From: a virus
Lineage: Duplodnaviria; Caudoviricetes
Length of the DNA: 64,000 nt
IMG/VR virus record: IMGVR_UViG_3300028797_000007
Span: 32,001 to 96,000 of that record
Direction: 5' to 3' (one strand)
In this document: piece by piece, positions 656 through 37,189 of the stretch
Layout: every line of letters begins with the position of its first letter
How positions within the stretch are numbered: the first letter of the stretch is position 1
Program-made: the position numbers and the translations under genes
Notes under the pieces: generated by a model
The model's input: only the letters and a program-made list of their open reading frames with translations
What the model was told of the DNA's origin: nothing
Databases searched by the model: none

Positions 656-2920
656 TTAGGCAGTTGTTTTATTCTCTATTCAAGAGCCTTCAGATTTAGT
701 ATAGAATTTCTTACATTGAACCCACGTGCCAGAAGAATTTTTGTACCATACCTTTCCTTTAACTCATGTACCATTAACTTTAACTCATACAACAGCTTGG
801 TCTAATTCCCATACCGCATATAAAATAATATCAACTGTTGGGGTATATACGGCTCCTGGATTATACGTAGGAGTCGTCGCCGTATCGCTAGTGGCGAAAC
901 CTTTTAATATATAATTTGTTCTAGTGCATTCTGCTGTAGTTGGTAATGTAACAGAACCATTAGTTGTGGAACTATTCCATTGAGCAGTTAACGTAGTTGT
1001 GTTGTCTTCATTAAAGTTAGTTGCTCCACCAGCCCAAGTAGCTCCAGTAGCACTTGATTTCCAATTATTAAAACTATATGTTGTTGTATTGATAGCGGTT
1101 TGTGAACTTTTGGTTGTAGACCCTCCGTTTGCATTAAACGTTACGGTATAACCATTAGATGTAGAATTATTACGACTAATAGCAGCCGCAATTGTTAAAT
1201 TAACTCCATAAGTTTTAGTTTGTGAACTAGGAGTCGAAGAACCCCCATTAGCTGCATAACTAATTGTATAAGTATTAAGTTGCCATACAGCATATAAAGT
1301 TCTTGTTGCATCTGGTGTATAGCTTGCACCAGGAGAATAAGTTGCACTTGTTGCACTTGAACTAGTTGACCAACCTAATAAGGTATATCCTGTACGAGTA
1401 CATTGCGCAGTAGTAGGTAATGTAACTGCGCTATAAGCCCCAGTTGAAGAGCTAAATTGCGCATAAAGAGTTTCAGCTGCACTCGGTGTATATTGAGCAC
1501 TCGCATTACCTCTATTTGTTCCACCTGACGAAGCAGTCCACCAACCAGTTTGACTGTATGTTACAGTAGCTGTTGAATTTTGACTAGTTTTAGTTGTAGT
1601 ACCTTGATTAGCATTAAAAGTAACGGTTCTTGTTGACGTAGTACTTGCTTTTGTAGCAGTTGGTAATGTTACTTTACTATAAGTACCAGTACTTGAACTA
1701 AATTGTGCATATATTTTTTCACTGGCAGAAGGTGTATATTTAGCTCCTGCAACTCCTCTGTTAGTACCTCCTGATGCAGCAGTCCACCAACCTGTTTGAG
1801 AATAAGTAATTGTTGCAGTCGAATTTAAACTTGCAGTTGAACAAGTACCTCCATTAGTCGTCGCATCAAAAGTAACTTTTCTAGTTGCAGTACCATTAGA
1901 TTTTGATGCAGAAGGCAATGTTACTTGGCTAAATGTTCCAGTGGAACTTCCTCATTGAGAATAAAGAGTTTCTGCTGAACTTGGAGAATAGGAACCTCCG
2001 TTATTACATCTTTTAGTACCCCCTGACGTAGCTGTATACCAACCATTAGAACTATAGGTAACTGTTGCGGTTGAGTTTAAGCTACTGGTTGAACAGGTAC
2101 CACCATTAGTTGTTGCATCAAAAGTAACTTTTCTGGTAGACGTTCCATTCGACCTTGATGCCGAAGGAGTAGTAATACTTGAACTTGTAGAGCTAGACCA
2201 CTGAGCCGTTAATGTAGTAGTATTATCTTCATTAAAGTTTGTTGCTCCACCAGCCCAAACCTTACTAGTTTTACTTGACTTTCATCCAGTAAAATCATAT
2301 CTCGTAGTATTAGTTGCTTTTTTAGATGTAGGACTTACACTACCTCCGTTAGCATTAAATGAAATAGTTACTCCATCCGCAGTTGTATTGTTACGGCTAA
2401 TCGCAGATGCAATTGTTAAATTAACTCCATAATACTTAGTTTGAGTACTAGGCGTTGTATTACCACCATTTGCATTATATGATATCTGCCAATTGTCGTC
2501 TCCAACATTTATCGTCCAAGTTCAAGAAGAACCAACGGGGATATACGTACCATCATTAATAGTTGCAACTTCAACAGTAATGGTGACATTTCCATGCAAT
2601 CCACTTACTGTTAAAGGAGATTCAGCACCACTATTTGAATCACGGAAGGGTGACCAATCCGTAAAATCAGAACCGGAAGGTGCTAAACCTATCCAACGAC
2701 ATTGTTTCCAATACTTAGTTCCATTTACATATATATTACAAGCATTTTCTGCTGCTGAAGAATAAGTATCTCCACCTGCATAGTTATCACGTTTACCCCA
2801 ACATTTATATATCTTAATAGAGCCCGCACTAGGTATATCATATTCCAATTGAACCATTGACCCTCTTTGAGCGGCCGTACTTGACTGGTTACAACGAGCA
2901 GTTCCTGAACGTACTGACAT
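656..2920 (-). CDS. Tail fibre/receptor-binding protein with InlB B-type (Listeria-Bacteroides) repeats, 754 aa (TGA=Trp)
   Basis: ORFs 2522..2920 and 785..1918 are in one frame, joined across TGA at 2522, 2282, 1952 and 785; repeats TF(N/D)ANGG...GW...LYAQW; ends TAA at 656. Confidence 0.8.
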
Positions 2921-2942
2921 AGGTTATTTCACCTCCTTTAAA

Positions 2943-4811
2943 TTATGATGTTTGAATATAAATATCGCCATTAACACCAGTAGATGCTGATGGTGTAGAT
3001 GTACCAGTATAAACTACTGGGACTAAAATATTTGCAGTAGCTGCGCTGCCATTAAATGTTGCAACATCACTACCATTTTTTTGTATTGTTAAAGTGCCAC
3101 TTGTAGCATTAGCAGTACCCGCTGTTGTGGCATAAGAAACTGCAGCCCATTGACCATCACCACGTAAAAATTTAGCTTGGTCTCCTGAGCCTGGAGCAGG
3201 AACAACTCCTGCTGTACCAGCAGTACTTGCTGTAGCACCTCCCATAACATTTGCTAATGTAATATAATTAGCATCATTAGTCCAATAACTAACATTTGTA
3301 GGTTTGTTTAATACACCAGACCATTCTACATTATCTGCTGTACCTCCACCAGTAGCACTTAATACTCCAGTACCACTATCTATACTTAAACCAGAACCTA
3401 TTTTAACTCCACCTAAAGTACCATTAACACCTGTACCGGCAATTGGTAATGTATAACCTGTAGTTGAGATTGTGATAGTTCCAGTTGTATCATCACCTTT
3501 AGTATAAGTAATAACATTATTATTATTAATTGATAAACCTTTGATATAATTTGTAATATCTAAACCGTTTTTATCACCAGTTGCGACAGTAGCTGTATCA
3601 GCATTACCTGTTAAATCACCGGTGATGTCTGCTTTAATGGAAGCAGGTAATTTTAGATTAACAGCTTGAGAACCATCTACAGCCACAGTTACAGCTGTAC
3701 CAGTTCCATCACTATTAACGATACCTATGTTACGAGAAGTTCCCCAATTCGCTGTAGTAATATTATCACTACCATCAAAACTAGTACCATTAATTGTTTT
3801 ACTTGCTGCAAGCTTAGTCGCAGTAGCAGCATTACCAGCTACATTACCTACAGTCAGTACATCAGTTCCTGGGTTATATGTAAATTGTGATGCATTAATA
3901 GTAGGTATACCATTATTACCACTTTTACCATATCATACTGCTCTATCACTATCTGAGGAAGATGTCTCTATACCTGAATAAGCAAATCCTCCAGCCGTGC
4001 TAAAAGTTTTAATACCAGTAATAGTAACATTGCCAGCTTTTTTGACATAAGTGGTATTAATTGCATTACCATCCGAATCATTAGTAGCATTGGTAGCATT
4101 AGTTGCAGTAGCTGCATTACCAGTAATATCATCAGCAGCCGTAATAAAACCGCTATCATTCGTTACATCACTTGTTTTTGTAGGAATGCTTAAATTAATA
4201 GTTTTATTTGTAGAACCATTAAATGTATCTCCTACTTGTACTCCATTCTTTTGAATTGTTAGTTCTTTTAAAACAACAACTCCAGTAAAACCATTTACTG
4301 AATTTACATCAGATGGATTACATAATACATATACACTACCACCCCAACGATATTGTTTGTTTTGATAACTACCTGTAGTCATGATAAGATAAATCTTACC
4401 TTTCTCTGGAGTTAAAGCAGTTCCCCCATCTGTAAGTGATAACCATGTGCTAGATAAAGCTGTAGCACCATCTCTAATATATGCTTCAATTACATCATCT
4501 ACATAACTAGGTAATTGAGAACTAGGCACTTTAGCTTCGCCGTCTAGTGTAGCTACTCCATTGGCTACACCCTTTTGACTTAAAGGCACATAATTACTAA
4601 AATTATCGTTTAAAACTTTACCTTGGTAAGCATCTAAAACTCCTTTACCAGCTTGTGAAGTTGTAACATTATTTTGAATTTTATATTTACCATTGTCCAT
4701 TAATTCTTGCAAAGTGACGCCATTGCTATCTGATACACCGGCTGCACTCGTAAACGGTACGAATGGTTGTCTATCTTCGTCTCTAAGCATTTTAATTGGA
4801 TATGTTGCCAT
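2943..4811 (-). CDS. Tail fibre protein (TGA=Trp)
   Basis: 3933..4811 and 2943..3686 are in frame across one TGA at 3933; GNAATAT and FDGS tail-fibre motifs; C-terminal GDIYI. Confidence 0.8.
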
Positions 4812-4869
4812 CGTTATCCCTCCTTTTTTGATTATTTCTCTATATATTTAGTATCTTTCGACACCCTAA

Positions 4870-4902
4870 AATAAAAAGAGAGGGGAATTATCCTTCCCCT
4901 CT
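4870..4902 (-). terminator. Intrinsic terminator after the FN3 tail gene
   Basis: AGAGGGGAA/TTCCCCTCT hairpin with a T-run. Confidence 0.65.
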
Positions 4903-6455
4903 TAGTGCTCATTGTCATTAAGCTTTCATTGACCATTAACTTTAATATATAACTTCTTAGCTTTTACCCAAGAACCATTTATTTTTATATAAGTTTTTCC
5001 TTTAACCCATTGACCATCTATTTTTCTTCTAATTTTAGCTTGGTCTGCAGGAGTCTTAACAGTTAAAGTCTTTGTCGCTGTAGTATCAGAAGCATTTACA
5101 CCAGTATGGATAGCTTTCACTTGAACTTTCATATTATATGTAGTTTCTTCATTTAAACCAGTCCAATTATAAGAACTGCTTGATTGATAAGAAGTTCATG
5201 TTGAGCCTCCATCTTTACTAAAGCGATATTTTAAAGTCCTACTAGGACTTATAGAAGCACTACAATTAATAGTGCAAGAAAAAGGCAATAAATTACTAAC
5301 CGTAACACTTGAAATAGTTGGATTAGTTAATAATGTAGAATAATTATATACGGTAGCACTCGTAGTAGTACCACCAGCATTTGTAGCCTTGAATCTAAAA
5401 TCATAAGTTGTATCAGCAGATAAGCCTGTTATAGTACCAGTATTAACTGCTCCTAGAGTTTTACTTGTCCATGTTGAACTAGAAGGTAACTTATATTCTA
5501 CAACATAATTTGTCATCGTTGTACCAGTAGCACTTAATCTAACTGAAATTGAGTTAGTAGTACTAGCAGTTCTTTCCATTGACAAATTTGTTGGAGCATC
5601 TCAAGCAGTTTGAAACACTACAGTTTTTTGTGCTGCTCCCTGAGAAGTTGTTCAGGGTCCTGTTGTATTATTAGGAGTTACTCCACTAACACTCGCTAAA
5701 TGCATGTATTGACCCGGAGTAAAATTCCTAAATGCGAAAGGCCTTTCTATATAATAACTTGAGGCCGGCTCATTAGAAACACGAGTATAACTACTTCCAC
5801 CATTACTAGAAAATTCTACAGAACCGGCTGTCCCAGTGCTATATGGTTCACTACCATCTGGAGCAAGTATTTTTAGATTAAAACCATAACTTTGACGACT
5901 AGCGCTTAATGTAGTATCAACATTACTTGTTACACTTGAATTATAATAATGAACTACATTGTAAATATTGTTATCTGGTCCACTAGCATTACCGTATTTT
6001 CAGTATTCTACCGAACTGCCATGAGCCACTTGCTCATTTACTCATACTCAAGGAGTCCCATAATTACCATAACAATCCATGTTTTTGATTGATAGCTTAA
6101 CTGTTTTCTTAGGTAACTCATCTGTACTAATATCTGCATAACCAGAAGCGCTGGCTGTTTTTCATTCCCCAGTACTTCAATTAGTATAACCACAAGTCCA
6201 ACTTCCGTCTACTCTATACGAAGTCTTTGGTGACAAATTAGAAAAAGTTGCTGTACCTATATGCGTAGAATTTGGACCATAAAAAGTCATACCTTGAATA
6301 CTACCTGATTGAGTTTGCCCATTACAAGTAATAGACCAGCTACCATTATTAATTCCTATTAAGTCCCAACCAGAGCTACTACCTCCAGCATAAATATAAA
6401 TAGTAAGAGAGCTACTAGTAGAGCTACCTTTTGCAACCGAACATGTCCATCCCAT
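4902..6455 (-). CDS. Fibronectin type III-domain tail protein (TGA=Trp)
   Basis: Three track ORFs share one frame joined across about 9 TGA; FN3 motif GLSADTTYDFRFKATNAGG; C-terminal W-x-K-x-NG-x-W repeats; TAA at 4902. Confidence 0.8.
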
Positions 6456-6473
6456 AAGTTATCTCGCCTCCTA

Positions 6474-9400
6474 TTAACTCTCTATTAAAATATATAAATC
6501 TCCATCTTTACTACCAGAGACAGTAGTTGGTGCTGAAGTACCATAATATGTATTAACACCCTCTGCAGCAATTTGAGCAGAAGTGTTTGTTCTAATTTTT
6601 GAAGCAGTCCATAATACTTGGTTAGATGTACCGCTATCATTTACTGTATAAGTATTTTGTAATTTATTAGCAGTTAAAGCAACATCAGCACTATCTGCAC
6701 GAGCTGCATATTTAACTCTTTTTTCTATTGTATTATCAACATAATCTGACACTAACATGTAATTATTTAATGATACTGAAGCAAATTGTAATTTATAGTT
6801 ATCTGAACTATCTTTTCCTAATGTAATCATTTTACCTAAGTTAGCTTCATTATATGTTACTTCAGTGTCGGCTAAATTAGCAAAACTTGTAGCTCCACTA
6901 CCGGCGACAGCTGCATTAATTGTAGCTCTACCATCAGTAACAGTGACTGTTAAGTTATCACCAAAATTCCATTCGTTAATCTTGTTCCAGTCTGTTTTTG
7001 CTACAAATGATAACCAATAATCAGTTTCAACTGCACTACCAGCTACAGCCGTAATAGTTAAATCCTCTTCTGTACTACTAGAAGGTAATTTATAAGTTAA
7101 AGTATCTAAACTAGGAGTATAAGTTAATATAGTATTTGCTACCATTGAAGAAGTGGCAGTAAATTTATACGAATTATTATTATAAGTAAAATAATAAATG
7201 TGTGCTGTTAAACCTCCAGATGGAACTGTATATTGATATTTAATTGCACTTGTATCTTGAGTTGTTCCTCCACTAATATAAGGTCCTTGTGTTCCACTAT
7301 TATAAACCTTATGGTAATGATTTTTAACTAAATCATAAACATTGGTTCCTAAAACAGTTTCTTCATTGCCTGCTGTATAAGTTACTTTACCATCTGCTAG
7401 ATGTCTTAATGTAATACTTCTATCAATTGGTGTAAAAGTAACTTGGTCTACGTCCGAATATCCCGATGCATCTTCAGTAGATACATAAACTGGTAAATCA
7501 AATACTCCTTTATCTCCATTTGAATTAGTACCATAATATTGGTCTGCAGTAGCATGGTCTAATACAGATAAATGGTCTGCTATTAATGCCCTATCTACTG
7601 CACCTGCATATAAATCAGGTCTAGCAGTTGCATTAACAGCGAATTCACTTCTTAGTAAGAATTGATTTGGGTCTGTTTGACCTACACATTCAATTGTTGC
7701 CACTCTGTTCGATGTATCAACATTTACGTTAGCACCAAAGGTATAGAATTTTAATGCTGTTACATCACCTAAATTAGTTGTTTCACCTGGGTTAGAACTA
7801 CTTCCACCTATAGTTTGAATACTAATATCTTCTAATTTTCTAGACAACTCATTAATAGTATTATCAGGTAATCTATCTGAACGTATACGTCTTTCTTCGT
7901 CTGGAGTAACAAATACTCTTTGTGTACCGTTTAATAACTTAATATCATCAGTTGATAAATTATGAGGATTAACAACTGTATGTGCTGAAGCAGAATCATT
8001 AGCTGAAATAGTATTCATATGGTTTTTAGAAGCAACTACATCAGTATTTTGACTAACTCTTTCTTGTGTGAACCATAAATTAGTTGCACCACCTAAACCA
8101 TCACCTTCGTTTATATCTCCTGTCATTAAGACTACGGTCTTGGCTTCATTATTATTTGTATTATCACCAAGTCTATAACCATTAATAGAAGTATTTTTAT
8201 GTACCTTATATTTCTCTACATATTGTATTCTACTTTCATGGTCTGCTACTTGTAAATCTATATTATCTAATCTATCTTCAGCATGGAACAATCTATATCT
8301 TATGCTTTGTTCGTATCTTTGTTTATTACTATTATCTGTTGACCATACTTCTTTTTCTAAGTCTCTTAATCTATCTCTAATATAGGTTAAATCATTATCA
8401 TCTGCTAACTTATAACCAGAAGTTACTGTATTATATGTACGTAATTCATTTATTGTTTTGGTAACATTAGTTGTTATATTATCAGTAATATATTTTTTAG
8501 TATCACTATAAAGCTCTCTTGTTACATGAGAAGGTAAAAAATCTAAACTATATAAACCTTGATAATTTTCATTTTGTAAATCAAATAAATCGAAACGTAC
8601 CATAGCTGGACTTGCGTCAGCTGCATCACCACTATATAATTTAAAAGCAGTGTCAGCGAATTCTGGACTAATAGTACCTACTTGACTAATGCGTCCTAAA
8701 GTTAAAAATCTACAACAATTTGCATCATCAGTTGTAAAAGTTTCAACACCTTCAGCCTTACCTAAAACAATACGAGTTGCTTCAACATAAGGAAATTCTA
8801 TATCTATACCAAAAGTATCATTTATATTTGATAAAGCATCTGTCATAGAATTATATACTTGTGTACCATAAATAATAATATTTTCTCCATTAGGAGTAAC
8901 TAAATGTTGTTGAATTGTAAAATGTCCATCTGGGACTGCCTTTAATTCAGTACCATCCCAATATAAATTGTAAAGCAATGTACTTGTAACAATCAAATCT
9001 TTGGCTAAACCATTATCTGGTATCATATATACAAAATAAGGACAAGGTGATTGCTCGTCATAATGTTTTAAGTTAAAATCACAGCCATTATCTGTATCTG
9101 CTGGGAAATTATCTGTTAATCCAATTGTATAATTAATACCTTCATCATAATAATAACCTGGACGTCTAGCGGCATTAGCGGTATTCATACCAGCTGTAAC
9201 TAAGTTCATACCTATAGCTTGTCCGCCATTAACCATAAAACTACCTCTATCAGCAGTATAAGCTATATCAGGTAAAGTGTATAAGCAAGTACCCATTACC
9301 GTACTACCTAATTTATTTTCTATAATTTTATTAGTATTATCAACTAAGAAAGTACCAATAAAAATATGATTTGTATCATCTGTTGCAGGCATTCCTGGAA

Positions 9401-9908
9401 TTATACTATAAGCACCAGTATAATCAGTAAATATTGAATAAGCACCAGCTCCTGATACTGATGATACTATATTAAGTGTAGTCGCATCTATTTTATACAT
9501 ACCTTTTAAATAACGACCATCACCCTCTTTGTTTTTGAAATAAACTAACATTGCTGGCATGTTAATAATTTGTCTTGTATCGTCTGCTAATGTCATAGGT
9601 CCTTCTAACACTACGGCTCCCGAATTTAAGAAACCTTGTCTAAATGTTTGACCAATATCCATTATTTTATGCCATTTATCATCAGTTTTTGAATAACGAT
9701 AAAATTCACCACTTGACACTACATAACAAACTTGTCCATCTAGTGGGTCTGGTACTGCATACATGTCAGTAATTGTACTTACAACCCCGTTCTCCTCAGG
9801 GAACACTAAGTTTGTATTAGCCATACTGATGGCATTTAATAATCTTCTAAAGTTCTCATTAAGTGGAGAGGAAGTTATAGGACCACCTATTCTAATAAAA
9901 TCTTGCAT
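6474..9908 (-). CDS. Large minor tail/baseplate protein, 1144 aa
   Basis: Long intact ORF between Dit and the tail fibres; central coiled coil; C-terminal DGDLYI motif. Confidence 0.7.
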   Translation of the reverse strand: MQDFIRIGGPITSSPLNENFRRLLNAISMANTNLVFPEENGVVSTITDMYAVPDPLDGQVCYVVSSGEFYRYSKTDDKWHKIMDIGQTFRQGFLNSGAVVLEGPMTLADDTRQIINMPAMLVYFKNKEGDGRYLKGMYKIDATTLNIVSSVSGAGAYSIFTDYTGAYSIIPGMPATDDTNHIFIGTFLVDNTNKIIENKLGSTVMGTCLYTLPDIAYTADRGSFMVNGGQAIGMNLVTAGMNTANAARRPGYYYDEGINYTIGLTDNFPADTDNGCDFNLKHYDEQSPCPYFVYMIPDNGLAKDLIVTSTLLYNLYWDGTELKAVPDGHFTIQQHLVTPNGENIIIYGTQVYNSMTDALSNINDTFGIDIEFPYVEATRIVLGKAEGVETFTTDDANCCRFLTLGRISQVGTISPEFADTAFKLYSGDAADASPAMVRFDLFDLQNENYQGLYSLDFLPSHVTRELYSDTKKYITDNITTNVTKTINELRTYNTVTSGYKLADDNDLTYIRDRLRDLEKEVWSTDNSNKQRYEQSIRYRLFHAEDRLDNIDLQVADHESRIQYVEKYKVHKNTSINGYRLGDNTNNNEAKTVVLMTGDINEGDGLGGATNLWFTQERVSQNTDVVASKNHMNTISANDSASAHTVVNPHNLSTDDIKLLNGTQRVFVTPDEERRIRSDRLPDNTINELSRKLEDISIQTIGGSSSNPGETTNLGDVTALKFYTFGANVNVDTSNRVATIECVGQTDPNQFLLRSEFAVNATARPDLYAGAVDRALIADHLSVLDHATADQYYGTNSNGDKGVFDLPVYVSTEDASGYSDVDQVTFTPIDRSITLRHLADGKVTYTAGNEETVLGTNVYDLVKNHYHKVYNSGTQGPYISGGTTQDTSAIKYQYTVPSGGLTAHIYYFTYNNNSYKFTATSSMVANTILTYTPSLDTLTYKLPSSSTEEDLTITAVAGSAVETDYWLSFVAKTDWNKINEWNFGDNLTVTVTDGRATINAAVAGSGATSFANLADTEVTYNEANLGKMITLGKDSSDNYKLQFASVSLNNYMLVSDYVDNTIEKRVKYAARADSADVALTANKLQNTYTVNDSGTSNQVLWTASKIRTNTSAQIAAEGVNTYYGTSAPTTVSGSKDGDLYILIES

Positions 9909-9921
9909 CTTAGTGCACCTC

Positions 9922-11433: not shown

Positions 11434-11522
11434 ACTTTTCCCTCCTATTTCTTTAATCTCTCTAACAATTAGTAGTTAGAAAAGAATAAAAATAAAAAGA
11501 CGAGGAGCTCATGCTCCCCGTT

Positions 11523-25859: not shown

Positions 25860-25890
25860 TTGTCATTCCTCCTAAAAAATTGTAAAAAAA

Positions 25891-25926: not shown

Positions 25927-25944
25927 TTTTATTACTAAGAAATA

Positions 25945-26970
25945 TTACATAGATGGATTGTCATCTAATTCAGTATTTCTGTAGATACCCCAGTAGTTAT
26001 TAGCTACTACTGCTACGTCAAACATATGTTGAGCAGATACTTCGATAGAACCATCTTGTAATCTTTGTTCATCGATTAAAGTTCCACCTTCAATACCAAT
26101 CTTAACTGGTTTTTCTTTACCAGCTGGCATAATATATGCATATTGGTCATCAATAGCTTTGATAGTATTACCTTCATCTTCAAAAGATTGAGTTAATAAT
26201 ACTACGTTAGTTCCTTTATAACGTCCAACATATCCTTGTTCTCTAACATCATCATAATCTCTTAATGATGTAACAGGATTAGCATCTCCAACCCATCCTG
26301 GTTGATTGAATAAGTATGAAGCGAATGCTTTAGTACAATAAATTGTAACACTGTCTCCATAAGCTTCTACAGTAGTGATAATTTTGTCGAATTCTTTTGC
26401 GTCAAATCCAGCAACTACAGCTTTGTTAGCAGCAGGTCTGTCTTCAGCGTTGATAGCAGCTTTTAAAGCTCCTTGAACTGTTTTATAGATACTGTCTGAT
26501 AATCCTTCGATTATGATATCCATTAATTCAGCCATATCAACACGTCCAGCTAAGAAATCTCCTAATTCTAAGATAGCTGCACCAGCGTATACTCTAGGAC
26601 TCATAGTGATGTCTCTAGTATCTACGTTGAATGTACGGTAAGTTCCGTATTCTCCAGCAACAGTAACGAATCTTTTACCACGTGTAACACCTGTTCTTTG
26701 TTTGAAAACTATTTTTTCTCCAACATTTACATGTTGTACTTCAGCGAATGAACCAAATTGAGCGATTACTTTTTTAGGAACAACAACGTTAGCGATTTCT
26801 TCGATTAATTGGAATAAAATATTTTTGTTAGCTCTATAATAACTATAGTTATTGAAAGCTTTTAATTCTTCTCTTAAAGTTTCGTTAACGTCAGCTAGAC
26901 TGTATTCTGCTGGAATGTTTTCTTTAGTAGCAGCAGCTACACCTAATTCAACTAATTTTTCTAATTCCAT
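25945..26970 (-). CDS. Major capsid protein
   Basis: 341 aa, strongest codon bias in the module, follows the scaffold/decoration genes and precedes a terminator. Confidence 0.85.
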   Translation of the reverse strand: MELEKLVELGVAAATKENIPAEYSLADVNETLREELKAFNNYSYYRANKNILFQLIEEIANVVVPKKVIAQFGSFAEVQHVNVGEKIVFKQRTGVTRGKRFVTVAGEYGTYRTFNVDTRDITMSPRVYAGAAILELGDFLAGRVDMAELMDIIIEGLSDSIYKTVQGALKAAINAEDRPAANKAVVAGFDAKEFDKIITTVEAYGDSVTIYCTKAFASYLFNQPGWVGDANPVTSLRDYDDVREQGYVGRYKGTNVVLLTQSFEDEGNTIKAIDDQYAYIMPAGKEKPVKIGIEGGTLIDEQRLQDGSIEVSAQHMFDVAVVANNYWGIYRNTELDDNPSM

Positions 26971-26988
26971 AGTCTTGTCCCTCCTTTA

Positions 26989-27492
26989 TTATGCGATAAC
27001 TCTATAAGTAGCACCGATTGTACCAGCTGGTACTGTTTCTAATGCACTACTTTCTATAACCATGATTTTATGAGAACCGAAAGTGAAAGTTGTTCCTTTA
27101 GCTAATTTGCTAGTGATAATTCCTTTTCCAGCGTTAAAATCAAAGTTAGTAGTAAAGATATCTCCTATTGTTAATTTGTATAATCTTGGTAAATAAGCTT
27201 CACCAAAAATTTCGTAATCGTCGTTTACTTGGTAAATAAAGTTTTCCATTCCACTTTTTCCATCTTCGTATCTACGAGGATTAGAGAAATGTAAGTACAT
27301 AGCGTCAACACATTTATTAGCTGTATATGATTTAACAATTGTATTGTCTTCAGCATTTATGAAAACGATTGCACCATTTTCTAATGAGTATCCGTCAGCA
27401 GCGAATGCTTCTCCTAATTTGCATTGAGCTTCGATTTCACCAGTTTTTCTACTAGCTACTTTGTTTAACTCAGCAACTGCGTATTTTGCCAT
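26989..27492 (-). CDS. Capsid decoration/auxiliary protein
   Basis: Intact ORF between protease and MCP; LENG and GDIFTTN motifs. Confidence 0.6.
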   Translation of the reverse strand: MAKYAVAELNKVASRKTGEIEAQCKLGEAFAADGYSLENGAIVFINAEDNTIVKSYTANKCVDAMYLHFSNPRRYEDGKSGMENFIYQVNDDYEIFGEAYLPRLYKLTIGDIFTTNFDFNAGKGIITSKLAKGTTFTFGSHKIMVIESSALETVPAGTIGATYRVIA

Positions 27493-27510
27493 ATAAATGT
27501 ACCTCCTTAA

Positions 27511-28818
27511 TTATTTATTTGCCTTGTGGCGTTTTACTAAATCCCAAGCACCATTTCCTAAACTATTGTCTGCAATATTAATATTTAGACTAAAGTTAGC
27601 ATCAGTATCTGTAGATTCAGTTTCTTCAGCAGATAATTGTTCAACTAAAGCTTGACCTAGTTCATTCTTAATTTCGTCAAGTGAACGTTCATCTACTTCG
27701 TTTGTTAATTTTTCAATTAACTCATCGTTCTCTAACTTAGTAGAGAATTTGTTTATAATTTCTAATTTTTCTTTTTTTGTGTATTTATTTAATGAACTTA
27801 AAGCGTCATTAAGCTTGTTTTCTAATGATTCGTATTTTGCTTTATAATCAGCTAATTCTGCTTCTAAAGCTGAATAATCTTTTTCCTTATTGCAAGCATT
27901 TTCGCATACACAAGGATTTTTACCGCATTCTGGACATTCTTCTTCGTCTTCTTCTTCATCTTCGTCTTCCTTAGATGCAAATTCAGATTCTTCAGTAACG
28001 TCCTCTACAGTCTCTACAACTTCAGTTTCTTCAGCAGATTCTTCTTCAGCTTCAACCTCAACTTCTTCAGTTGATTCAGTTTCAGTTTCAACTTCAGTTT
28101 CTACTGTTTCAGTAGCTTCTACTTCTGTTTCAACAACTTCAGTAGCTTCTTCTTCAACTGGATTAGTAGTAACTTCTGGTTCTACAATTTCAGTAATATC
28201 TTCCATAATATTTTTACCTCCTTCATTATTTTTCTGTGTGTTCTCAACAAACATGGCGTAAGCACTTACCATGTTACTAAATGCTGTAATGAATTGAGCA
28301 TCTTCAAAGCAAGGTTCTACATCATCACCTAAAACTGTAATACCTGCAAATTCTGCATAAGTTACCCTGTAATAAGTAATAGAGCCTCTTCTTTCAAATG
28401 TTCCTTTCATTGTATTAGGATTTAATTCCATAGATAAATGTTTTTCATTCTTAAGAATGTCTTGAGCTTCTTCAAAACGTCCATCCCAAATAACAACATC
28501 TACTTCTAGATATTCTTTATCAGAACCGTCTTGTTTAACTCAAACCGCATGTGGTTCTAGTGGAATAAAACCAAAAGCACTTGGATTACTCTCATGCCCT
28601 TCGAAATCGTTAGTCTCATAATTGAATGTTCCAATTACTGGAGTACCAGGAATTGTAGATGCTAATTGCTCAGCAACTTCACCTTCAATGATAGAACGGT
28701 TTCTATTTATTCCTTTGTAAAAAATACGAGCTCTTCCCATTGAGAATACACTATTGATTTTGTTAGGAGTACCTAATAAATCAACTGAAAAGGTTGCATA
28801 CTTATGTAATTCATTCAT
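27511..28818 (-). CDS. Prohead protease-scaffold fusion (TGA=Trp)
   Basis: 28540..28818 and 27511..28431 joined across TGA at 28540; NRNRS...GH...SMEL...GITVLG.DVEPCFE protease domain plus Glu-rich coiled coil. Confidence 0.8.
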
Positions 28819-28830
28819 TGTAGCTCCCTC

Positions 28831-30420
28831 CTATAAACTCGCTTCCTTCGTTATAGTTGAATCTTTCTTCTCATTATCGTCCAATTCTGGGCGTCCATTC
28901 TTCTTGTCACTGGCTTCTTGTGCTTCAATGTTACCAGTTTTAGTTTGACCATTTGCTTTAATGTCGGATTTATTGCTCATGGTATGTGAACTTTGTAGGG
29001 GAACAAGTTTACTATCCAAGTCAAGAATGTCGTTCTCAAAAGCAGTAAGTGATTCTATATAACGTTGTTTAACTCCCAAAGCTACTTGAGGTACAATTTT
29101 GGAGAATCCATATTGAGCTCCTTCAAGATAACTTTTCATCATTTCCTCTCTATCCTTATAGGAAGTATCTAAAAATGAAAATACAAATTTGCTATTTTTT
29201 ATGATTTTCTTTTGGCAAACTGCGCCTAAATAGAAATTAAACCAAATAGCAATTTGTTCACGAAGTTTCCACATGAATATAGCATCTCTACGTTGAGACT
29301 CTTTCAATGTACCTGCTGATGTAGAATTAAATAATTCAGCAGATACCCCAGCATCATCGTAAAATTGGTCGTAATAAGTTTCCAAGAATTCATAATTTTT
29401 TGTAGCATCTCCTGTTTCACCTAACGATAAAACATCAATTTCTTTAGCCAATGTAGTAATAGCGTCAACATTATTCTTTTTAGCAGCAACGGCTTTTAAA
29501 TTCTTATGGAATTCAGCAGCTAACTCTAAATCTATTTCTGGGTTTCCTTCTTTGTCTATATCAATTAATTGAACTAATAATTTAGTTAAATTGGTAGAAA
29601 TATAATCATCTTTTAATGGTTCTAACATTTGTATACGAGCTATTTCTTTAATTAGAAAAGCAAAAGGTGGACGTCCATCTGATGTCGTAAATGCTATACC
29701 ATTTTCTACCGGTACAATAAACCATTGATTTATTGATTTACCATTTTTATATTCTTTATAAGCTGAACGAATTGCTTTAGGATATTGCTTTAATACTTCG
29801 TCCATTGTTAATAAATTATCTTTAGTCATTTCAGCCATAGCTACATCAATGAAAGTTAGGTCTACTGCAAATATATTAATTGATGGAGTTCCTGCAGTAC
29901 CAATTATTTTACAATAATCTGTAGGTAATTTTATCGTTTTAAAATACGAATTGGCCCCTTTTTTATATTCTTCATTATAATAATAAGTCTCACCTTCAAT
30001 TAACATATCTAATAAAGCATGACTAGTAAAGTTTTCTACTTCAATATCCTCATCTAATGTTCTTAAGGCTGCATTATAATCTTTCATTAACTTTTTCTTG
30101 TTTACTTTTTTATCGTCTAATATCGGAGATATAATATATGAATTATAATATATATAAGCAAAATATTCTAATAGTCTACGATATAATGGATGAGCAAAGT
30201 AAACTCTAGAAAATTTTCTTCAAGCTTTTACATCACTATAAGGTGTTTTTAAAACATCTTCTGGTTTAATAGGAATTTCCACTCTACGACCTTTAGTTAA
30301 AGCAGAGCCTTGAGGAATTTCTATAGTACCATTTTTAACAGCTGTACCCATTGCTTGAATAGATTTTCTAAATTCGGTTAAATATTCTTTTGTATAACTA
30401 GTAAATTTTTCTTTATCCAT
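28831..30420 (-). CDS. Portal protein (TGA=Trp)
   Basis: 30220..30420 and 28831..30087 joined across one TGA; follows TerL; C-terminal PLQSSHT...GRP. Confidence 0.8.
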
Positions 30421-30437
30421 TTGCTACTTTTCACCTC

Positions 30438-32195
30438 CTAATTTAAAAAACTATATTGACCTTTACTCCAATCTCGATTTTTCTTTTCTCTTTCTGTTTC
30501 TTCTACTTGATTTATATAATATAAACCATATACAAAAGCAGAAACCAAGTCTTTTCGAGTATGGCTATTGATACGAGTTAGCACTATAGTACTATTTGTA
30601 TCTAAATTGGCTTTTAAATTAGATAACTGGTCTTGTAACTTAGTCGTTTGAGCATATGGAATAAGTTTATTTGCTTGTTGAACTGGGTTCATCTTATTCC
30701 AAGTTTTATATTGACTGAAATATCTACGTGCTTGTCGTTCATTTAATAGTAGAGAAACACGTTTTAGACTCAAAATAATGTGAGCATTTGTATAAATTTC
30801 ACTATTTAAGCCTCGATTTGCTTCAATTCCGAACAATTTTCGCACATTTTCACGTTTTTCTGTACTAGAATACTTAGTTTTATTTAAAAAACCATAAGGA
30901 CTATAATAAATACCGTTTAATTCTTGTTCATCAATCATATAATCGGCAAGTCCAGCACCATTACCATTAATATCCATTACGATTGCTTTAAAGTCAAACT
31001 CTAAATCTAATTGTTTAAGCATTGCAGCCTGGTCTCTGAAGTGAGTCCCATTTAAAATCTTGATATTTACTAGGTGAATCTTATAACGTTCACCATCAGT
31101 ATAAACCTTAAATACCATCGCAACAGTTTGGTCGCCTTCAAATCTTGCAACGTCGACAGCACATACATAAAAACCTTTAAAGTCTTTTTCTCTTTTAAAC
31201 TCAGGTCTTACAAGATTACGACATTTACTAATTTGAGTATAGGAATAATAACTATCTTCGCTACCGCCAGTCCATACAGACATATATTCACGTAAAAATG
31301 ATTCAAGCTTATATGAAGATGCCTGTAATTTATCTTTTACTTTATCTACAGATAATAATCCGTGCATTACAGGTATTCTATAATCTCCACCAAAACAAAA
31401 TGCTTTGTCTGGTTCTAATGCCATATCAACTAATGTCTCTAATGTTCTATCATGAGCATAGGTTCCTTTATACCCCGCTGTAGTAATCATAGTTTGTGCA
31501 GCATGTGGTTCTGTCGGATTTAATAATCCAGCAACAGTTCTACGGTCAACATTCATCAATGGAATGATTACTTCGTTAACTGCATCACCATCCATCATGG
31601 CAAACTCTTCAAGTGTACCCCAATGTCTACGACCACCACGTCCAGCGTTACCAGTATTAACGATATCTATTTGACTATCATTACGGAATTTAAGTTCAGC
31701 ATAATCTGAACCCATATTACCATATTTCTTTTTCATCTTATCAATATCACTTATATTAAGTTCATTAACTAAAAAAGGAAATAAACGATAAATTTCATTA
31801 GTCTTTTCTTCTACGATTTGTGCCGCTTGCTTTTTTGTATCAGCACAAGTGAATCCTTTACTTCGCGGTTGCATAATTCCACGAATATTCATATCCAAGA
31901 AATCTAGAAATGACTTTGAATACGCACGAGGAAATGTTCCAGAAACCTCTCTAAAACGCATACATACTCTTAAAAATATTCTTTGATAAAAATATAATTT
32001 AAAGAATGAGTCAGCTGGAGTAATAACATCAATTAAATAATCAGGATATAAAGTAAATAATGTTACCATATCCTCGAATCATTCTCTATTATCTTCAACA
32101 TACTGAGGTGTTATAACTATTTGCGCCATATCATTTCTTTCTTGGAAAGTATTATAATACTTGTCTAATATTTCGTCAATACTATTTGAATTCAT
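30438..32195 (-). CDS. terL: Terminase large subunit (TGA=Trp)
   Basis: ATG at 32195, TGA at codon 39; PRAYSKS Walker A, RGGRR, LEEF Walker B, ITTA coupling motif, VDVAR nuclease Asp, RKD. Confidence 0.9.
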
Positions 32196-33177
32196 TTTCT
32201 ACTTGTTGGAACATATTTTCTAATTCTAATTCATTCATAGGGTCTTCTAATTCCATACCTTCTTCTTCGGATTCTGAGTATAATTGTTCTATATCTTCAT
32301 CAGTTATATCTGTACCCGCCTCTGAATTTAGTGCTTTAGCATTATACATCTCATTAACAGTCTCGCTAGAGTCCGTAAATAATCTACGAACATATTGTTG
32401 CATATTTTCTATTGTTTTATCAACTATATCTCTATTTTCAGATATTTTGTAATTTAATAAAAAGCCTGTTTTTTCTAAATATGCGACTAATTCACTTAAA
32501 CTTTCTATTGTATTTTCATTAGAAGATGTTTGAGTACTTATACCCAACTCTTTCATAAGTGCATTATAACTTTGAAGAACTGTAGTAGCTTCTTTGTTAT
32601 CTCCATTTGCAATACAATGGTCTGATATAGCAGAGAGCTTAGCTAGTTTTCTTACCATATCTCTTCTAGCTTCATCTTTAAATGGATAATGACTTAATGT
32701 ATGTCTTTCATATTCTTCCATTCTCATGTATTCTTCAAGAGTAAAACCATCTATGTGTCCTCATTTTTTTCTTAAGTACATAAGTAAATCTGAATGAATA
32801 GCAGTTAATTCATCTAATACACTATTGTACTCTCTACATTTTTCCCACATCTTATTGTATTGAAACCAATTATTATCAGCATATTTACCATTAGTCATTT
32901 CCTGACAATAATCTATAAGTAATGGGCCTAACTTCTCATACTTCTTTTCCATTTCTATTCATTTATTAGCATCATATGGTAAATCTAGGAATTGACATAA
33001 CTTATCAATTGAAGCTAAATCTTTTCTATCTATTTTTTGAGCTATGCATTCAATACAAGTATAACTTATTCCTTTTATTCCATAAAGAGATGAATTAGAA
33101 GTTGGAAGATACATGTCCAGTTTCTGTTTTTTACCACATTCTGGACAAATTCTATATTGTTCATTCATAAAATCCAT
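32182..33177 (-). CDS. Zn-finger protein, possible terminase small subunit (TGA=Trp)
   Basis: Three track ORFs in one frame joined across TGA at 32959 and 32761; CPECG...CIEC; directly upstream of TerL. Confidence 0.65.
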
Positions 33178-33182
33178 TCCTC

Positions 33183-34346
33183 CTATAGTTTAGTTGCTTT
33201 CTTAGATGCTTTTCTCAATTCTCTCTCTTTTCTTCTCTCCTCTTTAGCCATTTTATTTTCATAAACGCAATCTTTACAAATTTCCTTAAATGTCCCATCT
33301 TGATATTTGCCAAAATTTAATTCATGTGCGTATAGTTGTCTTCCACATTGTGGACATATTTTCCATTTAGTCATGTTTTCTAATGTACCATTAGGTCTAT
33401 GTGTTCTTTCTTCCCATCATAAATATGCTTGCTTAGCAATTTGTTTTGTAATATGTTGTTTCCATATTGTGCTGATATAATTAACACTATATGTTTTACC
33501 ACCCATTTTTTCTAAATCACTAACAATTTGTTCATTTGGTACATGATTAATTTTTTCTTCTAAAATTAATTTATGTTCAGGTGAAAATCTAGTTCTTTCA
33601 ATTAATTCATCTAAGAAATTATACATTTCTCACCATGGATGGAATGGATTATCTGTAGTCTTAGCTTTCATTCCTGAATAATATTTCAACATGGCATGTA
33701 TATGTTTCCAATTACCATAATCTACTTGCATCTCATAATCACATAAAACATGTGGTCCTATACACATTCCTATATAGTCTGGTTTTTCTGTATGAGAAGG
33801 AAGAACTCCAGTATTTCCTACTGGTGGTCTATAACTATCTTTAAGTAAGAATTGTTCTCTTCTTAAATCTATCATTCATTCTCTTAAAAAATATTTAGTT
33901 TGATATGTTGGAACTAATTTTCTATTAGGGTCCATATCTCTTTTACCTTCTAATACTTCACGACAATATTGATATTGCTCAGATATTAAATCTATAGCTT
34001 CCCATAAATCTTTCATAAAAGGTATATCTGCATCTTTTTCTCTATCTATTGTTGGTCTAGGAACTCTATATATTGATACTTCTTGACTTTTTTGTACAGT
34101 AGCTTCTCCTAATGCAGTTTCTATTAATGTCTCATAACTTACTTTCTTTTTACTCCCTTCTTTCAATTCTACTTCTGCATCTACATCTTCTGCATATAAA
34201 AGATAATTTGCTACTTTGTCTAATTCAGAAGGAGGACATAAAGATAATAATCCTTGCTCATCTAAAAAATTAACTAATCCTAATCTTTCTTGATAAGCTT
34301 GTAAGTTAAAGTCTAAATAACTTGCAATCTTCATTTTTACCTCCAT
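33183..34346 (-). CDS. Hypothetical protein with C-terminal HTH-like region and Zn ribbon (TGA=Trp)
   Basis: Four track ORFs in one frame joined across TGA at 33876, 33630 and 33417; CPQCG...CKDC. Confidence 0.7.
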
Positions 34347-34367
34347 ATTTCATTTATCTATATGTAT

Positions 34368-34394
34368 TATATCATGAATTTACTAGTTTGTCAA
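34368..34394 (-). promoter_or_regulatory. Sigma-A-type promoter heading the packaging/structural operon
   Basis: Minus strand TTGACA-N-TGATAAT upstream of 34346; divergent plus-strand TTGACA promoter at about 34530. Confidence 0.6.
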
Positions 34395-34583
34395 TAGGAA
34401 AGTTAAATTTTTTTAATTTTTTTATCTTTACAAAAAATAATATAATATATATAATATAATTAATATAATTTATAAATATATTAGATAGTCGTCGACGGAG
34501 CCAAAAAATAAAAAAGTTTTAGTTTTAAGTTGACAAACGCTTTCATTGAATGATAAACTGTATTCAGAAAAGGAGAGAGACCC

Positions 34584-35042
34584 ATGAAAATAATGATTTC
34601 CACATTCCACAATATTAGAAACTTTACACCAAACATGATTCCGGTTAGTACGGCAATATGGGACCCTAAATGGTTTCATGACTTTAGTCACCCCACCCAT
34701 GTGTTCAAAGATAAAAAGGGTGTATACAATGGGTTAAGGTATTTAAGTCTTGCGCCAGGTCTTACTTGTGAAGGATTGTGTAGAGGTCCGGAAGATTGTG
34801 GCAATAAACCACCACATTGTCCTTTCCTTACAGCATATAGAAAACAATTGGATAATATAAACTTTACTACCATGGTTAATGAGTTAGAGGCCATGGGAAC
34901 TGCAATTAAAAAACATGAGGGGTTCAAGGAAGACCCAATAATAGTTTTACTAGTTTATGAGAAACCAGATAATCCATGTAGTGAACGCTGGCCATTAAAA
35001 GATTGGTTCACAGAGCATGGTTTAGAATTAGAGGAGGTATAA
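34584..35042 (+). CDS. DUF488-like protein
   Basis: LAP...Y..QL...IVLLVYEKP..CSER pattern. Confidence 0.55.
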   Translation: MKIMISTFHNIRNFTPNMIPVSTAIWDPKWFHDFSHPTHVFKDKKGVYNGLRYLSLAPGLTCEGLCRGPEDCGNKPPHCPFLTAYRKQLDNINFTTMVNELEAMGTAIKKHEGFKEDPIIVLLVYEKPDNPCSERWPLKDWFTEHGLELEEV

Positions 35043-35043
35043 A

Positions 35044-35397
35044 ATGATTTGAGTAATAGGTATAGTTTGTTTCTTTTTCGGTTTTGTGTTTGGAATACTA
35101 ATGACTTTTAATAGTTTTAAGGAAAGATATAGTAATTGGAAGCCAATTTCAATGAGAGTAATATCAAAATCTACTGAATTAGAATATCATGCAGATAGAT
35201 ATAAATTTTCTATGGAAGATAATACTCCATATTTAAGAATATATAACATTGATAGATTTGAATGGTTCCCAATATGGCATTTTAAGAACCCATATTTAAT
35301 AATGATGGCAGTAGACCCAGATTATGCTAAAAATAATATGATGAGTTTATTTAGCATGGGAACTATTGAAAAGTTGACAGACTCTAATAAAAAATAA
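35044..35397 (+). CDS. Membrane-anchored hypothetical protein (TGA=Trp at codon 3)
   Basis: GAGGAGG RBS, then ATG ATT TGA GTA...; hydrophobic N-terminus in frame with the track ORF. Confidence 0.65.
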
Positions 35398-35433
35398 TAT
35401 AATATAATTGTAAATAAAGAAAGAAGGTATAAT

Positions 35434-35763
35434 ATGATAGAGATATTGGCTTTTTTAGAGAATAATCCACAATACACAAACATTGATATATTATATTCAT
35501 ATAAATTACCTGAAAATACAAAAGAAATTTCGCACATCTATTTTAATCGCGGTAACTGGTCATTATGTGTCACTGCACCACATAGCGGCAACGGCGGAAG
35601 GTTTCTCCTTCGCGCCAATCCCACTGCTACGCTAGATAGATGGTCCACTGCTGTCTATGAGATACTGCTAGATAGCTGGGAAGATGTGTGCAGGGACTTA
35701 GATTATGAAAATTATCAATATGATGTGGCCGGAATGGAAGTAGAAGAAGATTTTTGAAATTAA
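35434..35763 (+). CDS. Hypothetical protein
   Basis: Track ORF; its terminal TGA is followed by AAT TAA. Confidence 0.6.
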
Positions 35764-35859
35764 AATGTGTTTTAAAAGTTTACAAACGCTTAAAATTTTG
35801 ATATAATTAAATTGTAAAAAATAAAAAAGAAAAATTATTTTTTACGGGAGGGACAGTCT

Positions 35860-36054
35860 ATGATAACAAAATCTATCGTAACTAAAACAATAGAAATGTT
35901 GGAAGATTATATGGACGCTATGACGGCTAAGGTTAAATTCTTAGCAAATGCCGACCGCCCAGAGATGGATAAACAAATCGCTGAGGCGCAAAGTCTATTA
36001 AACTTCTGGAGATTGTACTCAAACTTTTTACCAGAGGAGGACGATGTATGTTAG
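35860..36054 (+). CDS. Hypothetical protein
   Basis: Own promoter and GGGAGG RBS. Confidence 0.6.
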   Translation: MITKSIVTKTIEMLEDYMDAMTAKVKFLANADRPEMDKQIAEAQSLLNFWRLYSNFLPEEDDVC

Positions 36055-36191
36055 CAGGTCTAGCGCATGGATTTGGTTTTATGTTCGGCGCGTTAATTTG
36101 TTACACAATTTACGATATTATATTCACCCTTATCGCCAGACACGCCGAAAAGACTGCAGCCGCTAAACGCAAAAAGCGTCGTAGAAATTAA
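36048..36191 (+). CDS. Small membrane peptide with basic tail, 47 aa
   Basis: GAGGAGG RBS; MLAGLAHGFGFMFGALICYTIYDIIFTLIARHAEKTAAAKRKKRRRN. Confidence 0.5.
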   Translation: MLAGLAHGFGFMFGALICYTIYDIIFTLIARHAEKTAAAKRKKRRRN

Positions 36192-36374
36192 TTTTTCGCG
36201 TACGCTCTTTCGCGTAAATTGTTTACAGAAGGTCCAAAAATATTTTATAATTAATTTGTAAAAATAAAAAAAAGAAAAAAAATATTTTTACGAATGGCGC
36301 GCAATGTATACTGCATTCGCCTTTCACCCTTTGAGTGCAGTATATGCGACGCAGCAATAGGAGGAACAAAAATT

Positions 36375-36593
36375 ATGACACCAAAATATGTAGTTTATGA
36401 ATGCGAAGAATGTGGAAAATTATTCTACAGAGAAGTAGCAGAAGTTTTAGTTGACGACGCAGAACATTGTGAAGTTAATGTTCGTTTAATCAACGACGCA
36501 AATGGCGAATTAGAAGAATTCCCAATGTGCGATTGCTTAGGGGGAGCAGAAGTTCATATGACAGATTTAATTCCCTCAAACTACGAAAAATAA
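36375..36593 (+). CDS. Small Zn-ribbon protein
   Basis: AGGAGG RBS before ATG 36375; CEECG and CDC. Confidence 0.6.
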   Translation: MTPKYVVYECEECGKLFYREVAEVLVDDAEHCEVNVRLINDANGELEEFPMCDCLGGAEVHMTDLIPSNYEK

Positions 36594-36901
36594 TACTGAC
36601 AGAGATGTCATATACATAGATGCGACGCAATATGTGGGCATAGTAGCTAATTCCCCCCTTCACCCTGGGGAGTTGGCGAACATGCTCATAGACCCCGCAT
36701 CTGTAACATCCGCACAGCTTTTGGGATACGGAGACTTGGACGGAACCAAGTGCCCAGTTGTGCGTCTATTTTATAATAACGGTTTAGCCGAAGATGTTTA
36801 TGATGTTAGACATACTTGGGCGAAGTAAGCACTCAACACCGCGCACCTTTCACCCTTTGTGCGGCGCAGTGCTTATTTTTTTGAAAAAAGCGAGGTGCAA
36901 A

Positions 36902-37189
36902 ATGAACACAGAAAAATTAGATAAATGAATAAAAATATTGCTAGCTATCCTTGGCGGCCAAATCGTTTTAATATTATGGGTATTTGCAATATTACTAGCT
37001 GGCCATGATTGCGCACTAATGTATGAATATGTGAAGCAAGACGGCACAACAGGTATGGCAAATATGTGCTATAATACAGAACGTGGTAAAGTATGCCGTG
37101 AAGATAATCGTAGTTTTATAGTTGTAGAGTATAAACAAGGAGACGTATGCAAAAATGACTGAAGAAGAGAAACGCTTAAAAGAGATTAA
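36902..37189 (+). CDS. Membrane protein (TGA=Trp at codon 9)
   Basis: GAGGTG RBS, MNTEKLDK(W)IKILLAILGG...; end is 37189 if the TGA at 37160 is read through. Confidence 0.55.

Follow-up and report, generated by a model that had tools for sequence, protein, structure and literature searches.

Strong support for TGA as a tryptophan codon outside a putatively early arc of a complete SPbeta-like phage

Without translation code 4, in which TGA is read as tryptophan (Trp), standard gene callers shatter about 40% of the large genes of the phage in IMG/VR record IMGVR_UViG_3300028797_000007, including those for DnaE, the terminase large subunit (TerL), the portal and the tail proteins. This raises the question of what the in-frame TGA codons mean, which tRNA reads them, and whether they hold back virion assembly, as a first-pass annotation of this DNA had proposed. 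We addressed it in a 64,000-nucleotide stretch (positions 32001 to 96000 of the record; hereafter the window, to which all positions refer unless marked as genome positions) and in the remainder of the single 111,499-bp source contig. The contig's first 127 bases recur as its last 127, and the record is classed by IMG/VR as having direct terminal repeats and being 100% complete. The window is thus part of a complete 111.4-kb SPbeta-like siphophage from gut or rumen, circularly permuted or terminally redundant, with a GC content of 33%. Our answer, which we consider highly probable, is that this phage spells Trp with TGA outside an arc of early genes and reads it with its own tRNA(UCA) in a host that uses the standard code, so that any gate would lie at the transition from early to middle genes.

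The first-pass annotation had reported about 40 in-frame TGA codons between positions 656 and 37189. We counted 42, with 38 in the late gene array and 4 in three small plus-strand open reading frames (ORFs). That the TGA codons join fragments into genes was borne out, in that code 4 yields a tight, co-directional array of 24 full-length genes. Comparison of coding density under the two codes points the same way: greedy ORF coverage of the whole genome was 0.86 with code 4 versus 0.78 with the standard code 11, and across the four 8-kb bins of window positions 1-32000 it rose from 0.79-0.95 (code 11) to 0.97-0.99 (code 4). The features concerned are as follows.

656-34346, minus strand: late array of 24 genes by gene calls and families (tail fibres, Dit, tape measure, head, portal, TerL, sigma-like); 38 in-frame TGA, about 101 TGG
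656-2920, minus strand: repeat-rich tail fibre-like protein with Listeria-Bacteroides repeats; 6 TGA, 21 TGG
2943-4811, minus strand: tail fibre; 1 TGA, 6 TGG
4902-6455, minus strand: FN3-domain tail protein, the most recoded gene; 9 TGA, 8 TGG
25945-26970, minus strand: major capsid-like protein (phrog_4088); 0 TGA, only 2 Trp codons
27511-28818, minus strand: gene downstream of the portal, in a function-less family (phrog_3313, unknown function; no Pfam match); 1 TGA (codon 93), 2 TGG
28831-30420, minus strand: portal protein (phrog_2739, E 4e-72); 1 TGA (codon 67), 3 TGG
30438-32195, minus strand: TerL; 1 TGA at codon 39, a variable position, and 4 TGG
33183-34346, minus strand: sigma-factor-like first gene of the late array, matched in PHROG only (phrog_5767, E 8e-19; no Pfam match); 3 TGA
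35044-37189, plus strand: three small ORFs of uncertain coding status; 4 TGA (codon 3, a second-to-last codon, and two internal)

The minus-strand array extends beyond the window to genome position 21865; it includes a tape measure protein of 2264 amino acids and a protein in the position of YonG. Both of the internal repeats that had been cited in favour of Trp are present: in the 656-2920 protein, LYSQ-TGA stands against two copies of LYAVW, and in the protein at 4902-6455, DGQWVKGK is the counterpart of VNGT-TGA-VKGK. Also as described, TerL, the portal, the 27511-28818 gene and the tail fibre at 2943-4811 carry exactly one TGA each, with 4, 3, 2 and 6 TGG, respectively. The label "protease" for the 27511-28818 gene did not hold, as no protease family supports it; the gene occupies the place of yonD in SPbeta, just downstream of the portal. 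The absence of TGA from the major capsid and major tail genes is true but uninformative, since these have only 2 and 0 Trp codons.

To determine the amino acid, we relied on the DNA of relatives. Full-length DnaE homologues in the protein database have W at all three of the phage's DnaE TGA sites, and because proteins called with code 4 could make this evidence circular, we examined nucleotide sequences instead. Around TerL, 24 IMG/VR loci of 73-96% identity were compared at the DNA level. Across 1,300-4,700 aligned codons, 14 of the 24 lacked in-frame TGA altogether, and TGG stood at 10 of the 11 sites at which the phage has TGA. The other 10 loci are recoded themselves, with TGA where the phage has TGG and vice versa. 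Summed over the phage's TGA sites in this region, the relatives have TGG 121 times, TGA 31 times and another codon 19 times. Portal codon 67 and codon 93 of the 27511-28818 gene are each TGG in all 13 of 13 standard-code relatives, and TerL codon 39 is TGG, GAA, AAG, ATG or GAG in relatives and TGA in recoded ones. A comparison with three complete relatives of standard code, each aligned over about 21,000 codons, gave 116 cells in the replication, tail and head modules, of which 93 were TGG and 11 more encoded Tyr or Phe; the in-frame TGA codons of those three relatives occur only in ORFs judged to be non-coding or in start extensions.

More distant proteins are consistent with an aromatic residue. 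Among 150 diverse cluster representatives of RecJ-like homologues, site 266 is F in 108 and W in 36, and site 34 is F in 60, Y in 54 and W in 10. Two of the three DnaE TGA sites are W in YorL of SPbeta; SPbeta alone, at 8 aligned TGA sites, gives W twice, F twice, and Y, H, P and E once each, which is suggestive but weak. An alignment of DnaE with Thermus Pol III alpha from the PDB is uninformative, with the TGA positions in non-conserved columns. No signal for Gly, Ser or Cys was found at the TGA sites in the comparisons with relatives and distant homologues. TGA terminates no confident gene of the phage, and it ends 5 of 115 genes in standard-code relatives and 0 of 38 in recoded relatives. 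The reading of TGA as Trp is strongly supported, and so is decoding by the phage's tRNA(UCA).

We then considered where in the genome the TGA codons lie. Counted over genes of at least 100 amino acids, the blocks outside the early arc are as follows.

Replication and metabolism block: 17 TGA, 48 TGG; TGA fraction 0.26
Tail-fibre and lysis block: 9 TGA, 43 TGG; TGA fraction 0.17
Late array of the window: 36 TGA, 99 TGG; TGA fraction 0.27

The first-pass annotation had described TGA as concentrated in packaging and tail genes, often as a single gate codon. Neither pattern exceeds chance: 17 of 65 Trp codons are TGA in replication and metabolism genes versus 36 of 135 in late genes (Fisher p=0.74), heterogeneity of the TGA fraction among late genes is not significant (p=0.12), 5 genes have a single TGA versus 5.9±1.9 expected with shuffled Trp codons, and TGA and TGG do not differ in relative position within genes, with no 5' bias (p=0.62). 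The TGA excess of the FN3 tail protein likewise loses significance once all genes are taken into account. On the plus strand outside the window, which encodes a Sak4-like ATPase, DnaB, primase, a RecJ-like exonuclease, DnaE, NrdD and a glycan operon, the primase, RecJ-like and DnaE genes and the gene that follows carry 2-3 TGA apiece, and the glycan genes and a lysis pair likewise contain in-frame TGA, at about the density of the virion genes. The idea that tRNA(UCA) decodes TGA stood up well; the idea that it holds back virion assembly did not. Because primase, the RecJ-like exonuclease and DnaE are recoded at the density of capsid, tail and packaging genes, virion assembly cannot be what the suppressor specifically gates.

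A real contrast exists elsewhere. A contiguous arc of about 44 kb, from about 37.6 kb in the window through the contig end to about 2.15 kb in the genome, is free of credible TGA.

37600-64000: window part of the TGA-free arc, with small early genes, 24 tRNAs, tmRNA and ROOL RNA
58046-58387: divergent sigma-70-like promoters, a putative origin and early control region, with 12/12 and 11/12 consensus matches at the GC-skew minimum

ORFs of the arc with a good coding score contain 66 TGG and no credible TGA; the contrast of 0 TGA with 62 TGA and 190 TGG in the remainder gives a Fisher p of 7e-7, computed with 59 TGG for the arc. Within the window (37.6-63.9 kb) there are 24 such ORFs, with 29 TGG and with 4 TGA confined to three of them: one is the third codon of an ORF whose start is probably over-extended, and the other three fall in two marginal ORFs of 50 and 91 amino acids. 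The earlier statement that the confident genes of this region lack TGA is right as to credible TGA. The other TGA-bearing ORFs of the arc (39.5-47.5 kb and the tRNA array) we rejected as genes: their coding scores are negative, they overlap tRNAs or ROOL, and the TGA codons persist in relatives that use the standard code. At the middle of the arc, at about 57-58 kb, cumulative GC skew reaches its minimum, and the skew maximum lies at genome position about 21 kb, where both gene arrays converge. The divergent promoters are putative, as matches to the sigma-70 consensus only. From them the minus-strand tRNA array starts at a distance of about 1.7 kb, and tRNA(UCA) lies about 2.7 kb downstream. 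The gating proposal had been staked on a difference in TGA use between early and late genes, and a difference does exist, in the form of this arc; the supported contrast, however, is between the early arc and everything else, so any gate sits there.

Comparison with the recoded relatives indicates how the codon is treated by selection. TGA versus TGG differs at 29% of the Trp codons that the phage shares with them, and in the same comparison A/G third-position differences affect 28% of Lys, 22% of Glu and 16% of Gln codons. TGA nevertheless supplies no more than 25-30% of Trp codons, against 80-92% for AAA, GAA and CAA in their own codon sets. Because its turnover is like that of synonymous codons and yet it is under-used, TGA behaves as a freely exchanging but disfavoured synonym, and these codon statistics are better explained by a codon that is tolerated and mildly disfavoured than by one placed for regulation. 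Together with the equal density in replication and virion genes, they argue that recoding in this lineage is mostly tolerated drift bounded by early-gene constraint, which tempers the popular "lysis timer" reading.

A host with the standard code is likely because of the TGA-free arc, the low TGA fraction, the close relatives that lack in-frame TGA and sometimes end genes in it, and the presence of the suppressor on the phage itself. A CHAP-domain candidate endolysin, the ROOL RNA and the cultured relatives, all of which infect Bacillota, point to a host in that phylum; the CHAP domain and ROOL are linked to Bacillota.

We propose the following course of infection. The host would read TGA as stop, and host-type promoters would drive the early arc, whose transcripts would be translated by the standard code. 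tRNA(UCA) would then accumulate, be charged by the host tryptophanyl-tRNA synthetase (TrpRS), and outcompete the release factor RF2, and only thereafter would middle and late genes be fully translated. The split between early genes and the rest would be mainly a footprint of purifying selection, TGA being lethal only in genes needed before the suppressor; AT-biased mutation would supply TGG-to-TGA changes, and mild selection against TGA would hold it at about 25%. A regulatory gate, if there is any, would act at the early-to-middle transition and not at virion assembly.

Several points weigh against this account. Genes with 6-9 TGA need very efficient suppression in the face of RF2. Between the best promoter and the tRNA array there is a hairpin (56605-56581) that resembles a terminator. 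The label "early" reflects position, GC skew and consensus promoter matches, and is to that extent provisional. The edge of the arc on the DnaB side is soft because there are few Trp codons there: the last 10 before primase are all TGG, for which p is about 0.05 given a TGA fraction of 0.26. Finally, bins of metagenome-assembled genomes that contain relatives conflict (Bacteroidales twice, Bacillota once), and such bins are not host evidence.

Other explanations have to be weighed against the same data. One is that the TGA codons are selected gates, often one per gene, that hold packaging and tail genes until the suppressor tRNA is available. Each large virion gene with several Trp codons does have at least one TGA, the FN3 tail protein has TGA at 9 of its 17 Trp codons and the holin-like membrane protein at 2 of 3, a pattern reminiscent of the Agate phages, in which a tail protein and a membrane protein for lysis are reported to be recoded preferentially (10.1101/2021.08.26.457843). 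We nonetheless regard this explanation as unlikely, given the equal fractions in the replication and virion blocks, the chance number of single-TGA genes, the lack of 5' bias or significant heterogeneity, and the fact that TGA sites are not conserved between near relatives, where they turn over like synonymous sites.

It is still less probable that the host itself uses code 4, as a mollicute would, with the phage merely matching it and nothing being gated. The low GC content and the complete avoidance of TGA as a stop would suit such a host; a 44-kb arc with 66 TGG and no credible TGA would not, nor would a codon that supplies only 25% of Trp when A-ending codons supply 80-92% in other two-fold sets. 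In-frame TGA is missing from relatives with TerL identity of up to 95%, some of whose genes end in TGA, and the phage carries a tRNA(UCA) whose anticodon-arm motif has no exact match in four complete standard-code relatives. Least credible of all is that TGA encodes another residue: Gly (as in code 25), selenocysteine (Sec) or Cys, or Ser by way of a class II-like long variable arm. ARAGORN labels the tRNA as SeC, and its long variable arm and G73 are features used by seryl-tRNA synthetase. In the relatives, however, 80% of aligned cells are TGG and most others encode Tyr or Phe, with no Gly or Ser, the distant RecJ columns are aromatic, and the tRNA has a Trp-like body in place of the Sec form. 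We therefore retain Trp, read by a phage tRNA in a standard-code host, as the preferred reading.

The tRNA that this reading calls for, and an ordinary Trp tRNA of the same phage, are encoded within the arc.

55418-55513, minus strand: tRNA(UCA), 96 nt, whose acceptor (A1-U72, G73) and body are of Trp type, with UCA in the anticodon arm and a long variable arm
63895-63968, plus strand: ordinary phage tRNA-Trp(CCA)

The SeC label notwithstanding, the best Rfam family for tRNA(UCA) is simply tRNA, and we rejected a tRNA-Sec identity on the grounds that it has a 7-bp acceptor stem and a 4-bp D stem, not an 8-bp acceptor and a 6-bp D stem. On the 3' side of the UCA arm there follow a 5-nt linker, a second hairpin of 5 bp, 4 nt and the T arm, such that the variable region is a 26-nt arm. 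The 7-nt loop of the extra hairpin, CUCCAAA, is identical in sequence to the anticodon loop of tRNA-Trp(CCA) from this phage. Compared with a canonical tRNA-Trp, the acceptor, discriminator and body agree, and the UCA anticodon and the 26-nt variable arm do not; by sequence, tRNA(UCA) is best described as a derived, non-canonical member of the tRNA-Trp family. This anticodon-mimic suppressor tRNA is the most unusual and original component of the system.

The extra arm is not peculiar to this phage. An unbiased search of IMG/VR for anticodon arms with UCA gave at least 121 matches. Among the matches listed, nearly all of the long-variable-arm tRNAs that are not Sec-like show U-CCA-A in the loop of that arm (43 distinct sequences by a hairpin finder, and about six more on inspection), with loop variants that include CUCCAAA, GUCCAAA, UUCCAAC, GUCCAUA and CGUCCAAAA; the CCA loop is absent from the approximately 20 Sec-like tRNAs among them. 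When 32 such tRNAs were aligned, each of the five base pairs in the extra helix varied on both sides and 91% of cells were paired, comparable to the canonical arms. The 32 were chosen for containing TCCA, and loop conservation in that alignment is partly by construction. Covariation was used in place of a single-sequence minimum free energy fold, which gave no cloverleaf for tRNA(UCA), as is common for tRNAs.

The distribution of tRNA(UCA) among phages suggests mobility. It is 91-97% identical to copies in 105-136-kb phages (G005-G010), whose DnaE proteins are 41-43% identical to that of the phage and free of in-frame TGA; other tRNAs common to these phages are mostly 55-85% identical. The UCA anticodon-arm motif GGTCTTCAAAACC had no exact match in four complete standard-code relatives. 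The FN3 tail protein had no match in the records that share tRNA(UCA), and DnaE and portal were compared instead. Because the tRNA is so similar in spite of the divergence of DnaE, and because the motif was not matched in the four relatives, it may move as a "recoding cartridge" that turns a standard-code phage into one that tolerates TGA, after which TGA would spread neutrally through all non-early genes. We tentatively suggest, as a reading that together with this mobility falls somewhat short of an even chance, that tRNA(UCA) is a specially built, portable suppressor in which the U-CCA-A arm serves as a cis handle: host TrpRS, which recognises the CCA anticodon, could thereby charge a tRNA whose own anticodon has changed. 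In the infection scheme above, the CCA-loop arm would possibly aid charging in this way. The suppressor may also read the in-frame UGA of the host prfB frameshift site, thereby lowering RF2. We found no published description of a suppressor with two anticodon arms or an anticodon mimic, in a literature coverage that was incomplete. The architecture offers a directly testable hypothesis for how a host TrpRS accepts an opal suppressor, which is relevant to genetic code engineering.

Several related tRNAs deserve mention in their own right. In a number of viral records, among them L066, L078, L119, L132, L138 and L139, and L064, L081 and L157, an anticodon-mimic tRNA(UCA) occurs with quite different D arms (6-bp stems, or a class II-like GGCAGAG...AAATGC). 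Because the D arms differ, the CCA-loop arm may have arisen more than once, or it may be old. In two other viral contigs, L038 (9830-9852) and L042 (5091-5113), the 5' half of tRNA(UCA) continues as far as the anticodon loop (...GGTCTT), where a ribosome-binding site and an ORF interrupt it; this could represent an intron of the anticodon loop that bears an ORF, or a gene that has been disrupted. L044 and L045 (116.7 and 119.6 kb) encode a two-hairpin tRNA(UCA) together with a CUA tRNA (called "Pyl" by ARAGORN), placing two suppressor anticodons in one array.

Recoding of this kind has been described previously. Gut phages that recode TGA to Trp in standard-code Firmicutes, including an "Agate" clade, were reported by Borges et al. 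in a 2021 preprint (10.1101/2021.08.26.457843). Within the Agate clade, members that recode TGA and members that use the standard code share over 90% average nucleotide identity, and the clade has bidirectional GC skew as well as recoded structural and lysis genes; its curated representatives keep the replication machinery in standard code, and use across clades is "variable" (10.1101/2021.08.26.457843). The route proposed there is that TGA stops turn rare, a suppressor is acquired, and in-frame TGAs accumulate (10.1101/2021.08.26.457843), and our stop-codon counts for standard-code and recoded relatives match it. The present phage resembles the TGA-recoded phages, the Agate clade above all, in its low GC content, TGA as Trp, a phage tRNA(UCA), the near absence of TGA stops in relatives, highly similar standard-code relatives, bidirectional GC skew, recoded structural and lysis genes, a size range of 110-135 kb and an origin in the animal gut. 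It has in-frame TGA in conserved genes, alignment of these to Trp, a UCA suppressor tRNA, and TGA absent from early genes and present in late ones. Unlike the Agate representatives, it has primase, RecJ-like exonuclease and DnaE genes recoded as heavily as its virion genes. It is a further example of the published kind, and not a virion-assembly switch.

Three other systems help to place it. The likeness to SPbeta (Spbetavirus) extends to the gene order yorG-yorH-yorI-yorJ-yorK-yorL, with homology (Sak4-like, YorH-like, DnaB, primase, RecJ-like, DnaE), to DnaE, which is 42.7% identical to full-length YorL, and to homologous TerL and tape measure proteins; SPbeta differs in having the standard code, a temperate lifestyle, no large tRNA array and a higher GC content. 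The crAss-like and Lak phages that recode TAG to Gln also carry a phage suppressor tRNA and combine recoded late genes with standard-code early genes, but the stop codon and amino acid are others and the hosts are Bacteroidota; some of them encode RF2, and no release factor domain was found in the present phage. Mycoplasma and Spiroplasma likewise read UGA as Trp through a tRNA-Trp(UCA); there, however, the change is genome-wide, RF2 is lost and TGA is dominant, whereas here it covers part of a genome, TGA is the minority codon, and the tRNA is phage-borne. Relatives of up to 95% protein identity, which either lack TGA or use it freely, form a natural comparison set, and as the suppressor tRNA was present only in the recoded relatives among those examined, the order of events in a code change becomes measurable.

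The remaining features lie beside these main subjects.

Genome 27569-29455 (L002:7569-9455), minus strand: candidate lysis pair outside the window, a CHAP-domain protein and a holin-like membrane protein
46319-46907, minus strand: full-length ROOL RNA (RF03087, 186.8 bits), in a gene-poor stretch adjoining the tRNA array
51164-51318, minus strand: partial match to OLE RNA (RF01071 model positions 437-594, 102.5 bits), between tRNA-Phe and tRNA-Glu
60747-61142, plus strand: transfer-messenger RNA (tmRNA), by Rfam

The CHAP-domain candidate endolysin has 1 TGA and 9 TGG; the adjoining holin-like protein, of 149 amino acids with two hydrophobic segments, has 2 TGA and 1 TGG. We do not tie the tmRNA to recoding, because the standard-code relative L009 has one too (4973-5387). 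The tRNAs number 26 genome-wide, 24 of them in the window, and include two with unusual, unmodified-looking anticodons: Ser(ACU) at 56480-56570 and Ile(UAU) at 54009-54085, both on the minus strand. The region 39500-47500, about 8 kb, has few ORFs with a positive coding score beyond four small genes and the ROOL RNA, an unusually low coding density for a phage. A ThiF/E1-like gene (L003:11668-12405, plus strand) lies inside the TGA-free arc.

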